NCBI GenBank assembly: GCA_016432285.1
Contig: CP066682.1
Span: 188,273-252,272 of the forward strand
Source: Candidatus Kaiserbacteria bacterium
GTDB taxonomy: Bacteria > Patescibacteriota > Minisyncoccia > Phycocordibacterales > UBA2100
Length of the DNA stretch: 64,000 bases
Direction: 5' to 3'
In this document: positions 2,486 to 58,853 of the stretch, in pieces
Numbering within the stretch: position 1 is the first letter of the stretch
How the letters are laid out: the number at the start of each line of letters is the position of its first letter
Program-made: the position numbers and the translations under genes
Notes under the pieces: model-generated
The model's input: only the letters and a program-made list of their open reading frames with translations
Database searches by the model: none
What the model was told of the DNA's origin: nothing

Positions 2486-3685
<1,200 letters not shown>

Positions 3686-5448: not shown

Positions 5449-5513
5449 ACGCTCGCCCCGTTAGATGCGCAGCTATCTAACCGGGGTGAAGATGATGTAG
5501 GTTCTCTGCGTGG

Positions 5514-5543
5514 AAAACGGCCCGCGCGAGCGGGCCGTTTTTT
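5514..5543 (+). terminator. rho-independent terminator after rpsJ
   Basis: aaaACGGCCCGCgcgaGCGGGCCGTtttttc; preceded by a second hairpin at 5456-5486. Confidence 0.65.
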
Positions 5544-5578
5544 CATAACGACAGGTCGACCCGTGCTAAGCTACCGGC

Positions 5579-6451
5579 ATGCGGGCGTTCACCTGCGGCC
5601 GGAGGCAACCAGGCGACACGTTCTATCTTGATTTCAATCCCTGTGTACGCGAGCCAAAAACGTGGAAGGAGGAAATCTATGCCGCCGCGAAGCTCCTGGC
5701 GAATCGTGCGGGCTCAAGGCCGATCTGGCTCGCTTCGAGCGGAGGAACAGACAGCGAAGTCATGTGTCGCGCCTTTTTTGACCAAGGAATTAATTTTTCA
5801 GTACTCACGGTAGAGCACATCGCTGGCACCAACCGTCACGACACGGCCTACGCACGTGCCTGGTGTCGCGCACGAGCGATTCCCCAGAAGATCGTTGAAC
5901 TCGACATGCCGGCGTTCCTCTCAAATGACGTTTTTGAATATACGCGAAAGGAGTACGTAACTGGAAACGTGTATCGCTACTTTCAAATTCGGTTGCTCGA
6001 GGAAATCGATCGCCTCGGAGGCTTCGGCGTCATTGGAAGCGGCGAACAGCTGTATCAAGCAGCGTCCGGCGCCGTTCCGTATCTCGAATACGAAGTGGGG
6101 ATTATGGCTCCGCTTCAGTGGAGCGAGCGGCACAACACCGAGCACGAGCCTTTTTTCTACATGAGCACACCCGAAATCTATCGGTCGTACATGGATATTC
6201 CGATCATCGCGCGCAACCTCCACTACCGCGACATCTTCATCCACCGCAAGAACGCGTTTCTCCTGAAGCGTATTGCCACAAATGCCGTGTGGGACGATTT
6301 GCGCGACAGACCGAAGTTCACCGGGTACGAGCACATACGGCCGCACCGCCTCGCCGCGCAAAAAAAGTTGAGGGGAATGTTCGGCGACCGCATACAAACG
6401 CTCCGGATTCCCGTCGATGAGGTGCGGAACCAGCTCGACGCGCGGTCATAA
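5579..6451 (+). CDS. PP-loop (SGGxDS) ATP pyrophosphatase family protein, unassigned subfamily
   Basis: IWLASSGGTDSEVM motif near residue 50; 290 aa; lacks the QueC zinc-Cys cluster and the TilS length. Confidence 0.6.
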   Translation: MRAFTCGRRQPGDTFYLDFNPCVREPKTWKEEIYAAAKLLANRAGSRPIWLASSGGTDSEVMCRAFFDQGINFSVLTVEHIAGTNRHDTAYARAWCRARAIPQKIVELDMPAFLSNDVFEYTRKEYVTGNVYRYFQIRLLEEIDRLGGFGVIGSGEQLYQAASGAVPYLEYEVGIMAPLQWSERHNTEHEPFFYMSTPEIYRSYMDIPIIARNLHYRDIFIHRKNAFLLKRIATNAVWDDLRDRPKFTGYEHIRPHRLAAQKKLRGMFGDRIQTLRIPVDEVRNQLDARS

Positions 6452-35511: not shown

Positions 35512-38358
35512 ATGCCTCCATCGACGATGGAGCGGCCGATCCGCCAGTTGGCGGAGCCGCAATCAGAAAAATTTAAGACGCCCGAAGACGAGCTCCGCTA
35601 TTTACGCGAGCGCGTGAAGGAGGCGGAAGCGCAGCTTGAGGCGGCACCTAACCGCTTTGAGAGCGATCGCATCGCCAAGCGCGAGGTAGCGGCGTACGCC
35701 GAGATACCGCAAGCCACGATTCTCCACGAGAGTTTTGTCATGCCGGAGCATGAGAGCGTGCGGCACAAGCTCCGCCTCGAGCCGGAGGCACACGACGTGC
35801 AGATGGACGAGCTTTTGAAGATTGTAACGGAGCGGGGGGTACGCAACGCACTTGCGGTCTGCGCCAAGATGCGCAATCCGCACCTTCAAGACGACTTCCA
35901 CCGGGTGATCACACGCTACATCGCCGAAGGTTTGCCGCAAAATGGCGCGCCGCCTCCCGAGAAAATCCGGCGCGCGCTCGACCTGGTGCTCTTTGCGGTC
36001 GACCCGCAGGCGCACGGCGAGCGCGACAAGCAAGACAACAGCCAACACCGCCTCGAGCAGGTGCTCGCCTCTTCTGAGCAGCTCTACGCCGGCCTCCTCT
36101 CGCTCATTTCGCCGCACGAGGGTTTCTCGCTGGAGATCGCGGTGCCCGAGGGCACCGAAGCGGCCGCACTCTTTTTAGCAGTACCGCGCTTTAAAAAGGA
36201 TCTTGCGGAGCGTCTGATCGCATCAGTCTTCCCCAACGCGCGCATTTCTGAGGAGCGCGGAGACTACAACATCTTCAACGTCGAGGGTGAGAGCGCGGCC
36301 GCGTATGCGACCCTCGCCGACCATCCGGCGTACCCGCTGAAAACACCCGACATGTTTGAGCACGATCCCATGAACGTCCTCCTCGCGGCCTTCGCGAAGA
36401 TCGCCAAGCACGGCGAGGGCGCCGCGCTCCAGATCCTCGTCTCGACCGAGGGTGACCGGTACAACCACCACTTCAAAAAGATGATCCGTCGCCTCGAAAA
36501 AGGCAAAACGCTGCACCGCGCGCTCGCCGTCCCGGAGAGCGCCATCGGCGAAATGCTCTACGATCTCTCGCATACGATGCTGAAGAGCAAAAAGCAGCTC
36601 GAAGACGAACAGCAGCGCCAGTTTCGACGCAACGCCGACAAGGTGGCGAGCGAGGAGATGGAGCGGAAGATCAAGAGCCGCATCGGGCCTACCATTATCC
36701 GCTTGGCAGCCTCGGCGAAAACGAAAGAGCGCGCCGAAGACATCCTCGGCAATCTCATTGCGCCCTTCAACCAGTACGACGACCCGAAGGGCAATCACCT
36801 CGTCTTTAAACACGTCTCGAAGTGGAGCCTCCAGTCGTTCCTGCGCGATTTTACCTTCCGCATTTTCGATCACTCGTACGCGATGCCGCTCTCGCTCTCG
36901 GAAATCACCTCGATCTTCCACTTCACCGCCGAGCGCGTGCACACTTCGCGCGAGCTGAAGCGCTCCTTCGCGAAGCAAGCCCCCGCTCCGGTGGAGATGC
37001 CGGGCGAGGGGATCACGCTCGGGGTCAACAGGTACGGCGCGGAGGAGCGCCCGGTCAAGTTCGGCACTATGGATCGCCTCCGCCACTGTTACGTGATCGG
37101 TCAGACCGGTACCGGTAAGACGGGACTTTTGAAAAACATGATCATTCAGGACATCAAAAACGGCGAGGGGGTGGCCTACGTCGACCCGCACGGCACTGAC
37201 ATCGAGGATATTCTCGCGGCGATCCCGCCGGAGCGCGTGAAGGATCTCATCTACTTCGATCCCGCCCACACGGAGCGCCCGATGGGTCTCAACATGCTGG
37301 AGTACGACCGTTCACGGCCCGAGATGAAGACCTTCGTCGTCGACGAAGTGTACGGCATTTTCCGCAAGCTCTATGCCGACGTGCCCGAAGCCTTCGGCCC
37401 GATGTTTGAGCAGTACTACCGCAACGCCGTCCAGCTCGTCGTCGAAGACCCGGATTCCGGCAGCACCTTCGTCGAGATTCCGCGTATTTTTGCGGACCCA
37501 ACATTCAGGAACCTGAAGCTCTCTCGCTGCCAGAATCCGATCATCGTGCAGTTTTGGAAAAAGATCGCACTTGAGGCGCAGGGTGATCCGTCGCTCGAAA
37601 ATGTCGCGCCCTACATCACTTCCAAATTCGACGTCTTCCTCACCAACGACATCATGCGCCCCGTGGTGGCGCAGGAAAAATCCGCCTTCGATTTCCGCAA
37701 AATAATGGACGAAAAGAAGATCTTTCTCGCCAACCTCTCAAAAGGGCGGCTCGGGGACCGGAACACCTCGCTCCTCGGCCTCATCCTCGTATCGAAGTTC
37801 CTCCAGGCCGCCTTTTCTCGCGTGGAGGCGCGCGGAGAATTTCCGGTCTTCTACCTCTACATCGACGAGTTCCAAAACTTCGCGACGCCCTCGATCGGCA
37901 CGATCCTTTCGGAAGCCCGCAAATACAAACTCTCGCTCGTGATCGCGCACCAGTTTATCGCGCAGCTCGACGAAAAGATTCGCGATGCGGTCGTCGGCAA
38001 CGTGGGCACCAAGGCAGCCTTTCGCGTGGGTACGACCGACGCAGAATTTCTCGCCAAGCAATTCGAGCCCGTGTTCGGACAGCAGGATCTCGAAAACCTC
38101 CCGAACCGCCATGCGGTACTCGCGCTTCTCGTGAACGGCGTGCCGGCGCGGCCCTTCTCGATCAGCACCGAAAACCTGCCAACCTTCGACTTCAGCAACG
38201 TGGAGACTTTGAAACAGCTTTCGTACGAGACTTTCGGGCGCGCTCGCGAGGAGGTGGAGGCGGAAATCCGCAAAAAGTTCGACGCGAGCTACGGCCAAAA
38301 AGCGCCCGCATCGGATCCGTTTGCGCCCCCCGACTTTGCCCCGCACCCATCCGTATAA
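35512..38358 (+). CDS. large P-loop NTPase (948 aa): C-terminal TraD/TraG/VirD4-HerA-FtsK-like ATPase domain and ~500-aa N-terminal domain of unknown function
   Basis: Walker A GQTGTGKTG; DPHG; Walker B FYLYIDEF; LVIAHQ; no TM. Confidence 0.55.
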   Translation: MPPSTMERPIRQLAEPQSEKFKTPEDELRYLRERVKEAEAQLEAAPNRFESDRIAKREVAAYAEIPQATILHESFVMPEHESVRHKLRLEPEAHDVQMDELLKIVTERGVRNALAVCAKMRNPHLQDDFHRVITRYIAEGLPQNGAPPPEKIRRALDLVLFAVDPQAHGERDKQDNSQHRLEQVLASSEQLYAGLLSLISPHEGFSLEIAVPEGTEAAALFLAVPRFKKDLAERLIASVFPNARISEERGDYNIFNVEGESAAAYATLADHPAYPLKTPDMFEHDPMNVLLAAFAKIAKHGEGAALQILVSTEGDRYNHHFKKMIRRLEKGKTLHRALAVPESAIGEMLYDLSHTMLKSKKQLEDEQQRQFRRNADKVASEEMERKIKSRIGPTIIRLAASAKTKERAEDILGNLIAPFNQYDDPKGNHLVFKHVSKWSLQSFLRDFTFRIFDHSYAMPLSLSEITSIFHFTAERVHTSRELKRSFAKQAPAPVEMPGEGITLGVNRYGAEERPVKFGTMDRLRHCYVIGQTGTGKTGLLKNMIIQDIKNGEGVAYVDPHGTDIEDILAAIPPERVKDLIYFDPAHTERPMGLNMLEYDRSRPEMKTFVVDEVYGIFRKLYADVPEAFGPMFEQYYRNAVQLVVEDPDSGSTFVEIPRIFADPTFRNLKLSRCQNPIIVQFWKKIALEAQGDPSLENVAPYITSKFDVFLTNDIMRPVVAQEKSAFDFRKIMDEKKIFLANLSKGRLGDRNTSLLGLILVSKFLQAAFSRVEARGEFPVFYLYIDEFQNFATPSIGTILSEARKYKLSLVIAHQFIAQLDEKIRDAVVGNVGTKAAFRVGTTDAEFLAKQFEPVFGQQDLENLPNRHAVLALLVNGVPARPFSISTENLPTFDFSNVETLKQLSYETFGRAREEVEAEIRKKFDASYGQKAPASDPFAPPDFAPHPSV

Positions 38359-38394: not shown

Positions 38395-38997
38395 ATGCAA
38401 CACCCCAAAGAAGAGCGAACGCTCGTAATCGTCAAGCCTGACGGCGTGCAGCGCGGCCTCATTGGAGAGCTGATAAAGCGGTATGAGCGCACCGGCCTGA
38501 AGCTCGTGGGGATCCGCTTCGGGATCGCCGACGAAAAGAAGCTCTGGGAGCACTACAACAAGACCGACGAGTGGTTCCTCAAAAAGGGAGCGAAGATCGC
38601 GGAGGACAAAAAAGCCAACGGGCTTCCGGTCCAGAAAGAGCCGATCGAATACGGCAAGGACATCATCCGCCAGCTCGTGCATTTTATGACAAGCGGCCCC
38701 GTTCTTTTTTTGGTGTGGGAAGGCAACCAGGCGGCGGCGGTCGTGCGAAAGATCACCGGCGACACCGAACCTGCAACCTCCGACGTGGGGACCATTCGCG
38801 GGGATTTGACGCTCGATTCGTACACCATCGCAGCGGTCGACGATCGCGCCGTCCGCAACCTCATCCACTGTTCGGAAGACGCGGCGGACGCGAAGCGGGA
38901 GGTCGCGCTCTGGTTTGACGAGAAAGATCTCATCGACTACCGTCTCTTCAGCGAGGAAATACTCTACGAAATCGATCTTCGCAAGATACTGAACTAG
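38395..38997 (+). CDS. ndk: nucleoside-diphosphate kinase with ~40-aa insertion and C-terminal extension
   Basis: LVIVKPDGVQRGL...; active-site NLIHCSED (NxxHGSD variant). Confidence 0.8.
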   Translation: MQHPKEERTLVIVKPDGVQRGLIGELIKRYERTGLKLVGIRFGIADEKKLWEHYNKTDEWFLKKGAKIAEDKKANGLPVQKEPIEYGKDIIRQLVHFMTSGPVLFLVWEGNQAAAVVRKITGDTEPATSDVGTIRGDLTLDSYTIAAVDDRAVRNLIHCSEDAADAKREVALWFDEKDLIDYRLFSEEILYEIDLRKILN

Positions 38998-39053
38998 CAA
39001 GTCGCCGCACCCTTCATAGAGACTTCCGGCAGGCTGGTGCTATACTTTCGGTA

Positions 39054-39212
39054 GCGGCTGGTACTTAAACCTGCTTGGTTCAAGTAAGGGATTCTCATAT
39101 CGCTTCGCGCCTTGGCGCGAATGCTGCGGAAACCCACCTGGTCTCCAAAGCCCAGGCTTGCCGTACCTGCCGCAACAAAAAATCCACTGTACACAGTGGA
39201 TTTTTTGTTTTT
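39054..39212 (+). ncRNA. candidate small RNA (~160 nt) with its own TGCTATACT promoter (39038-39046) and an intrinsic terminator (39177-39212)
   Basis: No credible ORF; promoter motif identical to the genome-typical -10; three internal hairpins; AAAAAATCCACTGTacaCAGTGGATTTTTTGTTTTT terminator; a separate promoter for the downstream gene follows. Confidence 0.3.
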
Positions 39213-39254
39213 AAGACGCACGATTCTCAACGTTCTTGGTGGTACAATCCCACG

Positions 39255-39632
39255 ATGTCGGCGCGCGCACTTCTCTTTTCGCAGTTTTTGGCGCTCCTGG
39301 CGCTCTCGCTTATCCATATTTTCGGCCTCACCTACTATTGGTACTGGATCTGGCGCTGGCTCGACATCGTTACCCACCTCCTTGGGGGATTGTGGGCGGG
39401 CTTTTTTGTGCTGTGGCTCGCAACACTGCTCGGGAAGCGCGTCTCGCTCATACAAGCGGTCATCATCGGGTTTCTCATTGGAATTGTGTGGGAGATATTC
39501 GAGAACTCCATCGGCGCGCTCGACCTGCGGGCTGAGTGGCTCGACACGCTCAAGGATCTTTCCATGGACGTGGTCGGTGCCTGCATCGCGTGGTTTGTAT
39601 CCCGCGCGCTCTCGAATCGCGCCGAAAAGTGA
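39255..39632 (+). CDS. small membrane protein (125 aa, Trp-rich TM helices)
   Basis: Extended -10 TGgTACAAT at 39240-39248, 6 nt upstream of the ATG. Confidence 0.5.
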   Translation: MSARALLFSQFLALLALSLIHIFGLTYYWYWIWRWLDIVTHLLGGLWAGFFVLWLATLLGKRVSLIQAVIIGFLIGIVWEIFENSIGALDLRAEWLDTLKDLSMDVVGACIAWFVSRALSNRAEK

Positions 39633-39649
39633 TGCTATACTGAATCGCA

Positions 39650-51888: not shown

Positions 51889-51923
51889 CAAAAAGCGCCT
51901 TGCGGCGCCAATTGTTTGTTTTG
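51889..51923 (-). terminator. terminator of ssrA (GGCGCCgcaaGGCGCtttttgttttg on the minus strand); its U-tract can also pair with the tmRNA 3' end (17-bp inverted repeat 51876-51892 / 51915-51931)
   Basis: Read directly from the sequence. Confidence 0.5.
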
Positions 51924-52321
51924 TGGAGGTGGGGGGAATCGAACCCCCGTGCAGAGAGAAACAGCATGCATGTGTCTACGGAGCGTAGATCATCTTGATC
52001 CGCCGGGTGGCGGATTTAAGCGTCGCGCATAAAAGATGAGCGAAAGCGCGCGAAACCGAGTCCAGTTTCTTAGATATCGCTCGGACAGGTCGACATCAGC
52101 GCTTGAGTGAAGTGACGTTCTGCCAATCGTAATCAAGCATCGGATTGGAGAACGGTCGCTTAGGCTATTGCGTAAGCGAACTGAAGGTCCTTCACCTGAA
52201 TCGGTGAAAGAACTCCCTGTGCTACTTTGTTCGCACTTGAGATTGTGAACGGGTTTGGAGAGACGTTCGCTCTCGCCCGCGCATGGATGTGTCGATCCCT
52301 CTGTCGAAGCCAGTCACCCCC
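51924..52321 (-). ncRNA. ssrA: tmRNA (SsrA), ~398 nt
   Basis: 5' end GGGGGUGACUGGCUUCGACAGAGGG (tRNA-Ala-like acceptor with G3:U70); 3' T-arm/acceptor GGGGGUUCGAUUCCCCC-CACCUCC-A; CCA not encoded; candidate tag ORF ends ...DLQFAYAIA-TAA. Confidence 0.8.
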
Positions 52322-58070: not shown

Positions 58071-58736
58071 ATGACACGTTTTCTTGAAAGAGAAAGAGCG
58101 AAGAGCCTACGTGCGGAAGGGAAAAGCTACTCGGAAATCAAGGCGATTTTGGGCGTCAGTAAAAGCACGCTCAGTGAGTGGCTCCACGACCAGCCGCTCT
58201 CCGATAAGCGCATGCGCGAACTCCGCGACTCGAATCCTCGAAGAATAGAGAATTTCAGGCGAACAATGCAAAAGAAGCGGGAGTTTCGGCTACAGACCGC
58301 CTACGAACAAGCAAAATACGACATCGGCCCTCTATCTAAAAGAGATTTATCTATCGCAGGCTTCTATCTCTATTGGGGAGAAGGAATCAAAGCGCAAAGG
58401 GGCACTATTGGCGTCGCAAACACGGACCCTGCCATTATTCGCGCAGTTCTCAAGTGGATGGGATCATTCGGAATCGACAAAAAGGCGATTCGCGTGCGGC
58501 TGCATCTTTATTCCGACATGAATGAAAAAAAGGAAACAGCGTATTGGTCAAAAATGCTGGAAATTGGCACGGATAAATTTCGCAAACCGTATATTAAAAA
58601 ATCTGCGCTCACGGGTCTCACCTATAAGTCAGGGCATGGACACGGAACATGTAATCTTATTGTTGGAAATGTACCAATGTGGGAGTACATTACGATGGCA
58701 TTAAAGTATCTGCGTGAGCAGCACATGCGCCCGTAG
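58071..58736 (+). CDS. helix-turn-helix domain protein of unknown function
   Basis: N-terminal HTH KSYSEIKAILGVSKSTLSEWL; stop codon lies inside the 5' end of the tRNA. Confidence 0.5.
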   Translation: MTRFLERERAKSLRAEGKSYSEIKAILGVSKSTLSEWLHDQPLSDKRMRELRDSNPRRIENFRRTMQKKREFRLQTAYEQAKYDIGPLSKRDLSIAGFYLYWGEGIKAQRGTIGVANTDPAIIRAVLKWMGSFGIDKKAIRVRLHLYSDMNEKKETAYWSKMLEIGTDKFRKPYIKKSALTGLTYKSGHGHGTCNLIVGNVPMWEYITMALKYLREQHMRP

Positions 58737-58798
58737 CTCAAAGGTTAGAGTGACCGGCTTATATCCGGTTGATCCTGGTTCGAGTCCAGGCGGGCGTA
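58727..58798 (+). tRNA. tRNA-Ile with anticodon UAU (reads AUA)
   Basis: Manual cloverleaf: acceptor GCGCCCG/CGGGCGT (G1.U72), D-arm GCTC-AAAGGTTA-GAGT, anticodon stem ACCGG/CCGGT with loop CTTATAT, T-arm CCTGG-TTCGAGT-CCAGG, discriminator A. Confidence 0.75.
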
Positions 58799-58853
58799 CA
58801 AGCGGTGTGGAATAAGGCGTTGCGGCGGCCTGCTCGCGTGCGAGAATGGAGGC

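Follow-up and report, generated by a model that had tools for sequence, protein, structure and literature searches.

A conserved small RNA gene downstream of ndk in Parcubacteria, most probably a compact 6S RNA

In this study, we have examined a 64,000-nucleotide (nt) stretch of the genome of a Candidatus Kaiserbacteria bacterium (contig CP066682.1; hereafter the window), and in particular the spacer that separates ndk, the gene of a nucleoside diphosphate kinase (NDK), from the membrane-protein gene that follows it. Our investigations demonstrate that positions 39053 to 39212 of the forward strand are a conserved, stand-alone gene for a structured small RNA. This RNA is most probably a compact form of 6S RNA, which in bacteria binds and restrains RNA polymerase, and is encoded by an ssrS-type gene of Parcubacteria/Patescibacteria: sequence comparison indicates that it is homologous to RNAs which Rfam scores as 6S RNA, with arms that appear shortened. 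A first-pass annotation of the same DNA had recognised the element and had not been able to match it to 6S RNA by eye; the identity proposed here comes from two divergent relatives, L066 and L026, that the Rfam 6S model does recognise.

The first-pass annotation had placed in the 257-nt spacer between the end of ndk (38997) and the next ATG (39255) an independent small RNA of about 160 nt with its own extended -10 element and terminator, followed by a separate promoter for the downstream gene, and had found no open reading frame in support. Each of these elements is present (Table 1) and comparison with relatives argues for the whole of this description. Loci were fetched around relatives of ndk from species-representative metagenome-assembled genomes labelled Parcubacteria, Kaiserbacteria, Paceibacteria or Patescibacteria, and nhmmer placed the RNA element downstream of ndk in 13 of the 22 loci. 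A degenerate pattern made from the invariant columns returned 108 metagenome stretches, about 100 of which are true homologues and a handful coding false positives. The collections searched thus hold about 100 distinct homologues of like architecture, from genomes and metagenomes of Parcubacteria type. A -10 of the form TAnnnT ends 5-8 nt before the RNA start in 93 of 97 distinct homologues (TATACT in 64), the commonest start being 6 nt after the -10 (63/93), and the RNA begins with AG in 88 of the 97. On the other side of the core, a hairpin with a U-run is found in 88 of 95 homologues, the terminator sequence being unrelated between loci.

In the window itself, TGCTATACT with the -35-like TAGAGA is the sole sigma-70-like site that a promoter scan reported between 38000 and 40500. 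Transcription would start at A39053, which we number as position 1 of the RNA (position n is window 39052+n), and the predicted transcript would run to about 39212, or about 160 nt with the terminator hairpin included. The terminator pairs 39174-39189 with 39194-39209 around the loop UACA (AACAAAAAATCCACTG-taca-CAGTGGATTTTTTGTT, then the U-run). A simple terminator scan did not report the terminator at 39174-39212, a miss that follows from the limits of the scan, which allows at most 2 bases between stem and T-run and needs three G-C pairs within a short stem. As no terminator is present from ndk to the RNA gene, that of the RNA probably serves both, ending read-through from ndk too. The stretch between the -10 and the terminator is rich in G+C, and the + strand from 39050 to 39212 folds at -70.7 kcal/mol, against -44.6 +/- 4.0 for dinucleotide shuffles (z = -6.6), and none of 200 shuffles folds as stably. 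In the alignments, substitutions in the stems are compensatory and insertions and deletions are not multiples of three, which argues that the element is not coding. Downstream, TGGTACAAT ends 6 nt ahead of the ATG at 39255, whose A is the 7th nt after the -10 (TACAAT, 39243-39248), so that this mRNA would be leaderless. By eye, downstream genes in the listed flanks likewise show a -10 of their own, some 6-8 nt ahead of the start codon; their mRNAs would be leaderless as well, and the RNA is therefore not their 5' untranslated region, in agreement with the first-pass annotation. The ATG of the gene after next (39650) also lies 8 nt after another copy of TGCTATACT (39633-39641), and mRNAs of this lineage seem as a rule to lack a leader.

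The link to 6S RNA is given by L066 and L026, two divergent relatives of lower G+C content that were found by the pattern scan. The Rfam 6S model (RF00013) scores L066 at 52.9 bits (3386-3543, E = 3e-8) and L026 at 48.9 bits (374-534, E = 3e-7), both above its gathering score of 46.4 bits. The same two stretches are recovered independently by our own covariance model, R1, which was built solely from the curated structure on 40 diverse window-like sequences (alignment A2): L066 scores 55.9 bits (3405-3522, E ~4e-13 to 1e-12) and L026 scores 45 bits (398-506, E ~4e-10 to 1e-9), in both cases over the full length of the model. The alignment of R1 with L066 spans P3, the internal loop (AAUAUC / GAUGAGG), P3b with a GUGG loop, and P4 (helices and joining segments are listed in Table 1), and the Rfam alignment of L066 also shows the 6S closing-stem signature GUUCG...CGGC. 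Furthermore, the Rfam 6S consensus is most conserved precisely in the stretch that makes up the invariants of the window family, GGG...CCCACCUGG...CAGG. The consensus GGGagccc...gggcaCCCACCUggaAcagCaGGuUCaAg is the invariant core of the family, the consensus segment caCCCACCUggaAcagCaGG holds the same string as the P4 region, and the consensus that flanks the bubble (GGG ... CCCACCUgg ... CaGG) is matched identically. 6S RNA is typically an abundant and stable transcript of about 150-200 nt, encoded once or twice in a genome; the 64-kb window holds one copy of the RNA and no further 6S-like match.

The secondary structure of the family was curated by hand, since RNAalifold gave a poor structure on the raw MAFFT alignment. 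With the resulting model, the window scores 132.1 bits on the + strand as against 21.5 bits on the - strand, and each locus holds a single full-length copy. A comparative alignment for covariation was among the checks put forward in the first-pass annotation; over the 97 distinct sequences aligned with R1, standard pairs fill 94.4% of cells, and double-sided changes occur in 29 of the 36 pairs. None of 500 shuffles reaches any of the covariation measures, and sliding the 3' partners leaves 33-44% of cells paired. The closing stem P1 has 11 base pairs (bp) with one conserved mismatch or bulge; all 10 of its pairs are double-changed somewhere in the family, with 95-99% of cells paired. P2 stacks directly on P1 and its pairs vary widely (UG 45, UA 24, CG 14 and AU 3; AU 40 and GC 13 for the next pair), RNA position 107 covarying with 28 and not with 15. 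The GGG/CCC pairs of P3 hardly vary and its next two pairs covary (UA 60, GC 26; UA 58, CG 22, GC 12). P4 does not vary within the close family, and covariation in it is seen in L022, L023 and L016, which are distant relatives. All of the 40 sequences compared have the same nucleotides at G36-G38 and C81-G89, and conservation of CCAGG is at least 90%. Three single strands are invariant: AACCUGCUU in J1/2, the UGCUG(C/A)GG side of the internal loop, and CCCACCUGG. Of the three hairpins that the first-pass annotation had drawn, the two now called P3b (39102-39124) and P4 (39137-39156) are conserved, while the one at 39066-39097 is unsupported, covariation pairing 39077-39080 with 39159-39162 and 39088-39095 with 39128-39135 instead; its list did not include the closing stem.

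Some relatives depart from this plan. In L012/L013 (4006-4162) and L052 (869-1033), an insertion of 35-45 nt puts a larger branched element in place of P3b, which shows that expansion is tolerated at the tip of the internal stem. In L106 (about 5459-5579, - strand), the 3' strands of P2 and P1 are duplicated in tandem over about 19 nt (CTTGCCGTACCAGCCGCAC twice), just before the terminator. J1/2 also resembles the 3' strand of 16S helix 45 (AACCUGCGGUUGG), and the idea of a 16S mimic was dropped, the likeness being judged coincidental once the link to 6S RNA had emerged.

Beyond the helices that covary, the RNA could adopt the canonical 6S arrangement, in which a closing stem (P1 plus a further helix, here called helix A) is followed by a bubble and then by the internal stem. 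The 5' strand of this bubble would have 14 nt and its 3' strand 17 nt, as compared with 16/13 nt in the Rfam 6S consensus. Helix A, the downstream helix beside the bubble, pairs RNA 14-21 (UAAACCUG) with 101-108 (CAGGCUUG, window 39153-39160). By eye it matches the uGAgCC/GGuUCa stem of the Rfam 6S consensus, and its CCUG/CAGG is paired in 97.7% of cells. In L021 and L022, two distant relatives that are linked to ndk, helix A is long and the fold is a rod; the homology of L021 is by eye only, neither R1 nor Rfam scoring its element. Helix A cannot coexist with P2 or P4, since both need its 3' strand: in P4 this strand (CCAGG) is paired to the 3' bubble strand, and in P2 it is paired to the distal 5' bubble strand. 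In addition, J1/2, the 5' arm of P4 and the shared 3' arm have changed together in distant relatives (CCUA / CCUAC / GUAGG in L023; CUAA / CCUAA / UUAGG in L022), and these concerted changes, along with the covariation of P2, argue that both alternative pairings are under selection. The canonical fold (state A) is computed at -40.2 kcal/mol and the rearranged one (state B, with P1, P2 and P4) at -42.5 kcal/mol, so nearly isoenergetic; on these predicted energies, the canonical 6S fold is feasible. A pseudoknot in which J1/2 and CAGG would pair together with P2 was considered and rejected: crossing pairs with 3-nt linkers are sterically impossible, which leaves the two as alternative states.

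The literature documents just such mutually exclusive pairings for the release of 6S RNA (PMC3988568; PMC8876501). In gamma-proteobacteria a release hairpin forms after synthesis of the product RNA (PMC3988568; PMC8876501), and in Bacillus and Aquifex a helix collapses the central bubble at the same stage (PMC8876501). By analogy, we infer that the window RNA would bind RNA polymerase and serve for product-RNA synthesis. The canonical fold would mimic an open promoter and fill the active-site cleft of the housekeeping sigma-RNA polymerase holoenzyme, and with polymerase so occupied, transcription would be damped when nucleoside triphosphates (NTPs) are scarce. Upon a rise in NTPs, polymerase would copy the RNA, starting near U23/U24 and proceeding through AACCUGCUU; this start is placed by analogy with U44 of the E. 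coli 6S RNA, a few nt into the bubble (PMC3988568). With J1/2 as template, the predicted product RNA would begin 5'-AAGCAGGUUUAA..., giving a short RNA of sequence 5'-AAGCAGGUUUAAG... or in a neighbouring register, and such templating would explain the invariance of AACCUGCUU. Its synthesis would unzip helix A and free the 3' strand CCAGGCUUGCC. Capture of this strand by CCUGG in the 3' bubble strand would give P4, in the manner of the E. coli release hairpin, and capture by GGUU in the distal 5' bubble strand would give P2, in the manner of the bubble-collapse helix of B. subtilis and Aquifex. The bubble would thereby collapse and polymerase would be released. A B. subtilis 6S-1 RNA truncated to 78 nt, made of the bubble and short arms, still goes through polymerase binding, product-RNA synthesis and release in vitro (PMC8876501), which makes such a cycle mechanistically plausible for a natural core of 123 nt.

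Several observations weigh against the assignment to 6S RNA. RF00013 has no match on the window element even at E<=10, nor on 20 typical loci of the family or on the ndk-linked distant relatives L015, L016, L021, L022 and L023; the window element thus stays below the gathering score, a criterion that reflects the seed of the model. At the gathering threshold, Rfam finds in the whole window a transfer-messenger RNA (tmRNA) and one tRNA and no 6S RNA, and at E<=0.5 the whole window gives no 6S-like match. The scan of the spacer that the first-pass annotation had proposed (38950-39300, 351 nt, E<=10) returned no 6S RNA and no known riboswitch, just spurious matches driven by the terminator (RNAI, microRNAs). 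As typical members are invisible to the Rfam model, the 6S assignment is transitive, passing through two bridging sequences which are just 2.5-6.5 bits over the threshold and are not linked to ndk. The core is also about 60 nt shorter than typical 6S RNAs (~200 nt, PMC8876501). As for the fold, helix A consists in the close family of just CCUG/CAGG and one or two A-U pairs, covariation there favours P2 over the outer part of helix A, and P2 with the near-invariant P4 fits a competing fold that closes much of the bubble. The minimum free energy fold has P4 formed, and the short helix A and the covariation of P2 suggest that the free RNA may be mostly in the rearranged fold. On a TARA ocean contig (L053, 8066-8152), a stretch with the core motif GCGGUGGCCCACCUGG...CCAGGAU scores 11 bits with R1 and has no score with the Rfam 6S model; the motif may be there by chance, or the stretch may hold a further divergent 6S-like RNA.

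The rival explanation that survives best, although we consider it improbable, is that of a lineage-specific small RNA which descends from 6S RNA or resembles it and no longer acts on RNA polymerase. Such an RNA could serve another protein as scaffold or decoy, or could regulate by base pairing through the invariant single strands AACCUGCUU and UGCUGCGG. The absence of an Rfam 6S match on any typical member and the compact size would suit it, as would the invariant single-stranded segments and the close-family fold, for which covariation supports not a simple rod but a three-way junction that carries a 12-nt bulge. However, the whole inner region is homologous to sequences that pass the 6S model, the invariant segments are those conserved across 6S RNAs generally, the competing pairings match known 6S rearrangements (PMC3988568, PMC8876501), and besides housekeeping neighbours no gene for a partner protein is evident.

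The genomic setting bears on a second possibility, that the element acts in cis, either as a riboswitch or leader of the membrane-protein gene with the terminator as expression platform, or as a structured 3' untranslated region or processing element of ndk. Of the 112 RNA-bearing loci, most of which were found via the RNA and not via ndk, 101 have an ndk homologue upstream in the same orientation, pattern-only loci included, and no terminator intervenes. Downstream, the loci have genes for SLOG (78), DUF2238-like (61) and L20 (33) proteins. The linkage to ndk and to the DUF2238-like gene, and a closed multi-stem domain with a terminator directly after it, are what a cis element would show. 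Nevertheless, the RNA has its own conserved promoter at a fixed spacing, by eye the downstream genes in the listed flanks carry their own -10 shortly before the start codon, the gap from ndk to the RNA is anything from 8 to about 1800 nt, and the loci differ in the gene that follows. In addition, no antiterminator that would pair with the terminator is apparent and no riboswitch family is matched in Rfam. We therefore regard a cis element as very unlikely. The ndk-to-RNA distances are roughly bimodal (about 20-80 nt and about 330-490 nt), and the second group suggests a small gene inserted in many genomes. A TraG/VirD4-like ATPase is encoded further upstream in 62 of the 112 loci, and a strongly conserved block can be recognised: TraG/VirD4-like ATPase, ndk, 6S-like RNA, DUF2238-like gene, SLOG (LDcluster4) gene. 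R1 also places the RNA after ndk in L022 and L023, whose NDK is only about 40% identical.

We give almost no credence to another universal small RNA (signal recognition particle (SRP) 4.5S RNA, 5S rRNA or a Y-RNA-like molecule): the core of about 120 nt with paired 5' and 3' ends has the size of 5S and 4.5S RNAs, and its conservation and consensus-like extended -10 promoter are of a housekeeping kind, but no SRP, 5S or Y RNA match appears in Rfam even at E<=10, P2 is stacked directly on P1, unlike in the three-way junction of 5S rRNA, and the positive evidence points to 6S RNA. By eye, the RNA shows none of the SRP domain IV motifs (GNAR tetraloop, AGCA loop) or 5S loop A/E features. SRP RNA, 5S rRNA, RNase P, Y RNA, ribozymes and riboswitches were all rejected as candidates, having no Rfam matches and, by eye, missing defining motifs and the wrong topology.

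Table 1. Coordinates of the RNA gene, its structural parts and its neighbours in the window (RNA, numbering from A39053)
Feature	Position	Strand	Basis
ndk, nucleoside diphosphate kinase, 200 amino acids	38395..38997	+	Pfam NDK, E = 2.6e-35
RNA promoter: -35-like TAGAGA (39017-39022), 18-nt spacer, extended -10 TGCTATACT (39038-39046)	39017..39046	+	promoter scan
Structured RNA core, 123 nt	39053..39175	+	covariance model R1
P1, closing stem, RNA 2-12 with 111-121	39054-39064 (GCGGCUGGUAC) with 39163-39173 (GUACCUGCCGC)	+	covariation
J1/2, UUAAACCUGCUU, nearly invariant	39065..39076	+	alignment
P2, RNA 25-28 with 107-110	39077-39080 (GGUU) with 39159-39162 (UGCC)	+	covariation
J2/3 (CAAGUAA), sequence-variable, remainder of the 5' bubble strand	39081..39087	+	alignments A2, A4
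Internal ("upstream") stem: P3, internal loop, P3b	39088..39135	+	covariation
P3, RNA 36-43 with 76-83	39088-39095 (GGGAUUCU) with 39128-39135 (GGAAACCC)	+	covariation
Conserved internal loop CAUAUC / UGC of the internal stem, between P3 and P3b			
P3b, variable hairpin, RNA 50-72	39102-39124	+	all 9 pairs covary
3' bubble strand: A, hairpin P4, then CU	39136..39158	+	
P4 (CCUGG-10 nt-CCAGG), RNA 85-89 with 100-104	39137-39156	+	
Intrinsic terminator, 16-bp hairpin and U-run	39174..39212	+	fold
Downstream promoter TGGTACAAT (39240-39248) and ATG (39255-39257)	39240..39257	+	sequence; gene called in identical contig L001
Membrane-protein gene, 125 amino acids	39255..39632	+	called in identical contig L001

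For the 125-residue membrane protein next to the RNA gene, PF09997 (DUF2238) is recorded in the identical gene of L001, and our own Pfam scan at E<=0.01 gave no match. The Pfam NDK domain is matched in two stretches of the 200-residue NDK, the best at residues 86-178, which suggests an insertion of about 50 residues relative to ordinary NDKs of about 140-150; this long form is kept in relatives. Directly upstream of ndk, a protein of 948 residues (35512-38358, + strand) shows weak matches to TraG-D_C / TrwB (type IV coupling protein) and AAA domains. Elsewhere in the window, the tmRNA gene lies at 51921-52321 on the - strand (Rfam 102 bits), with the tag peptide ANKVAQGVLSPIQVKDLQFAYAIA, and ARAGORN reports a tRNA-Ile with anticodon UAU at 58727-58799 (+ strand). 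A UAU tRNA-Ile is uncommon in bacteria, AUA being usually read by a lysidine-modified CAU tRNA.

Nearly all bacteria are said to have a 6S RNA (PMC8414754), and our literature search found no paper on 6S RNA in Patescibacteria, nor relevant work on non-coding RNAs of Patescibacteria/Parcubacteria. Since the standard Rfam model misses the compact form, annotation that relies on it would leave the gene out in this clade; the alignment and R1 would allow it to be annotated in Parcubacteria/Patescibacteria. If the identity holds, a global brake on transcription that responds to NTPs is retained even by these host-dependent bacteria with their extremely reduced genomes. Set beside the engineered 78-nt 6S-1 (PMC8876501), a natural short-armed 6S RNA would also be a ready test of which parts of the RNA are needed, and how the two known release mechanisms can coexist is a further point on which it may be informative. 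The compact form would be of use for annotation and for studies of 6S mechanism, and it is not a new class of RNA. The gene is linked in about 90% of loci to ndk, whose product equilibrates NTP pools, and a functional link between the supply of NTPs and an RNA that senses them is a matter of speculation. A more far-reaching picture would have this be the smallest natural 6S-type RNA, with a bistable core that holds both release devices and a place in a conserved, ndk-linked module of NTP-sensing brake and NTP supply in ultra-small, host-dependent bacteria, or else an RNA that has left the classical 6S role altogether; we regard it as rather doubtful.

The comparison with known systems places the window RNA close to 6S/SsrS RNAs (RF00013), with which it shares the signature GGG...CCCACCUGG...CAGG around the central bubble, a predicted capacity to form a closing stem, a bubble, an internal stem and a hairpin in the 3' bubble strand, and mutually exclusive pairings at the 3' strand of the downstream helix. 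It differs from them in having its own promoter, a terminator that directly abuts the closing stem, and synteny with ndk, the neighbour of the E. coli 6S gene being ygfA. Its closing and internal stems are also much shorter, the closing stem has no internal loop on its 3' side, and the core of about 123 nt compares with a consensus of 187 positions and typical RNAs of about 200 nt (PMC8876501). As in the E. coli release hairpin (the model of Panchapakesan and Unrau; PMC3988568, PMC8876501), CCUGG is complementary to CCAGG and competes with CCUG of J1/2, but the stem of P4 has 5 bp instead of the 9 bp of E. coli and is predicted to be already formed in the free RNA. The collapse helix of B. subtilis 6S-1 and Aquifex 6S RNA is defined by its two partners, the distal part of the 5' bubble strand and the 3' side of the downstream helix (PMC8876501), and P2 has the same partners. 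Unlike that helix, P2 is of just 3-5 bp, and it is assigned by covariation and analogy. Ms1 RNA, at about 300 nt, binds core polymerase rather than the holoenzyme. This actinobacterial, 6S-like RNA, a ligand of core polymerase (PMC9130861), has in common with the window RNA that standard 6S models miss it in one lineage; no relationship in sequence between the two was seen, no comparison aimed at it having been made. Finally, the window RNA approaches in nature the design of the engineered minimal 6S78, a bubble with short arms, which binds about 10-fold more weakly (PMC8876501).

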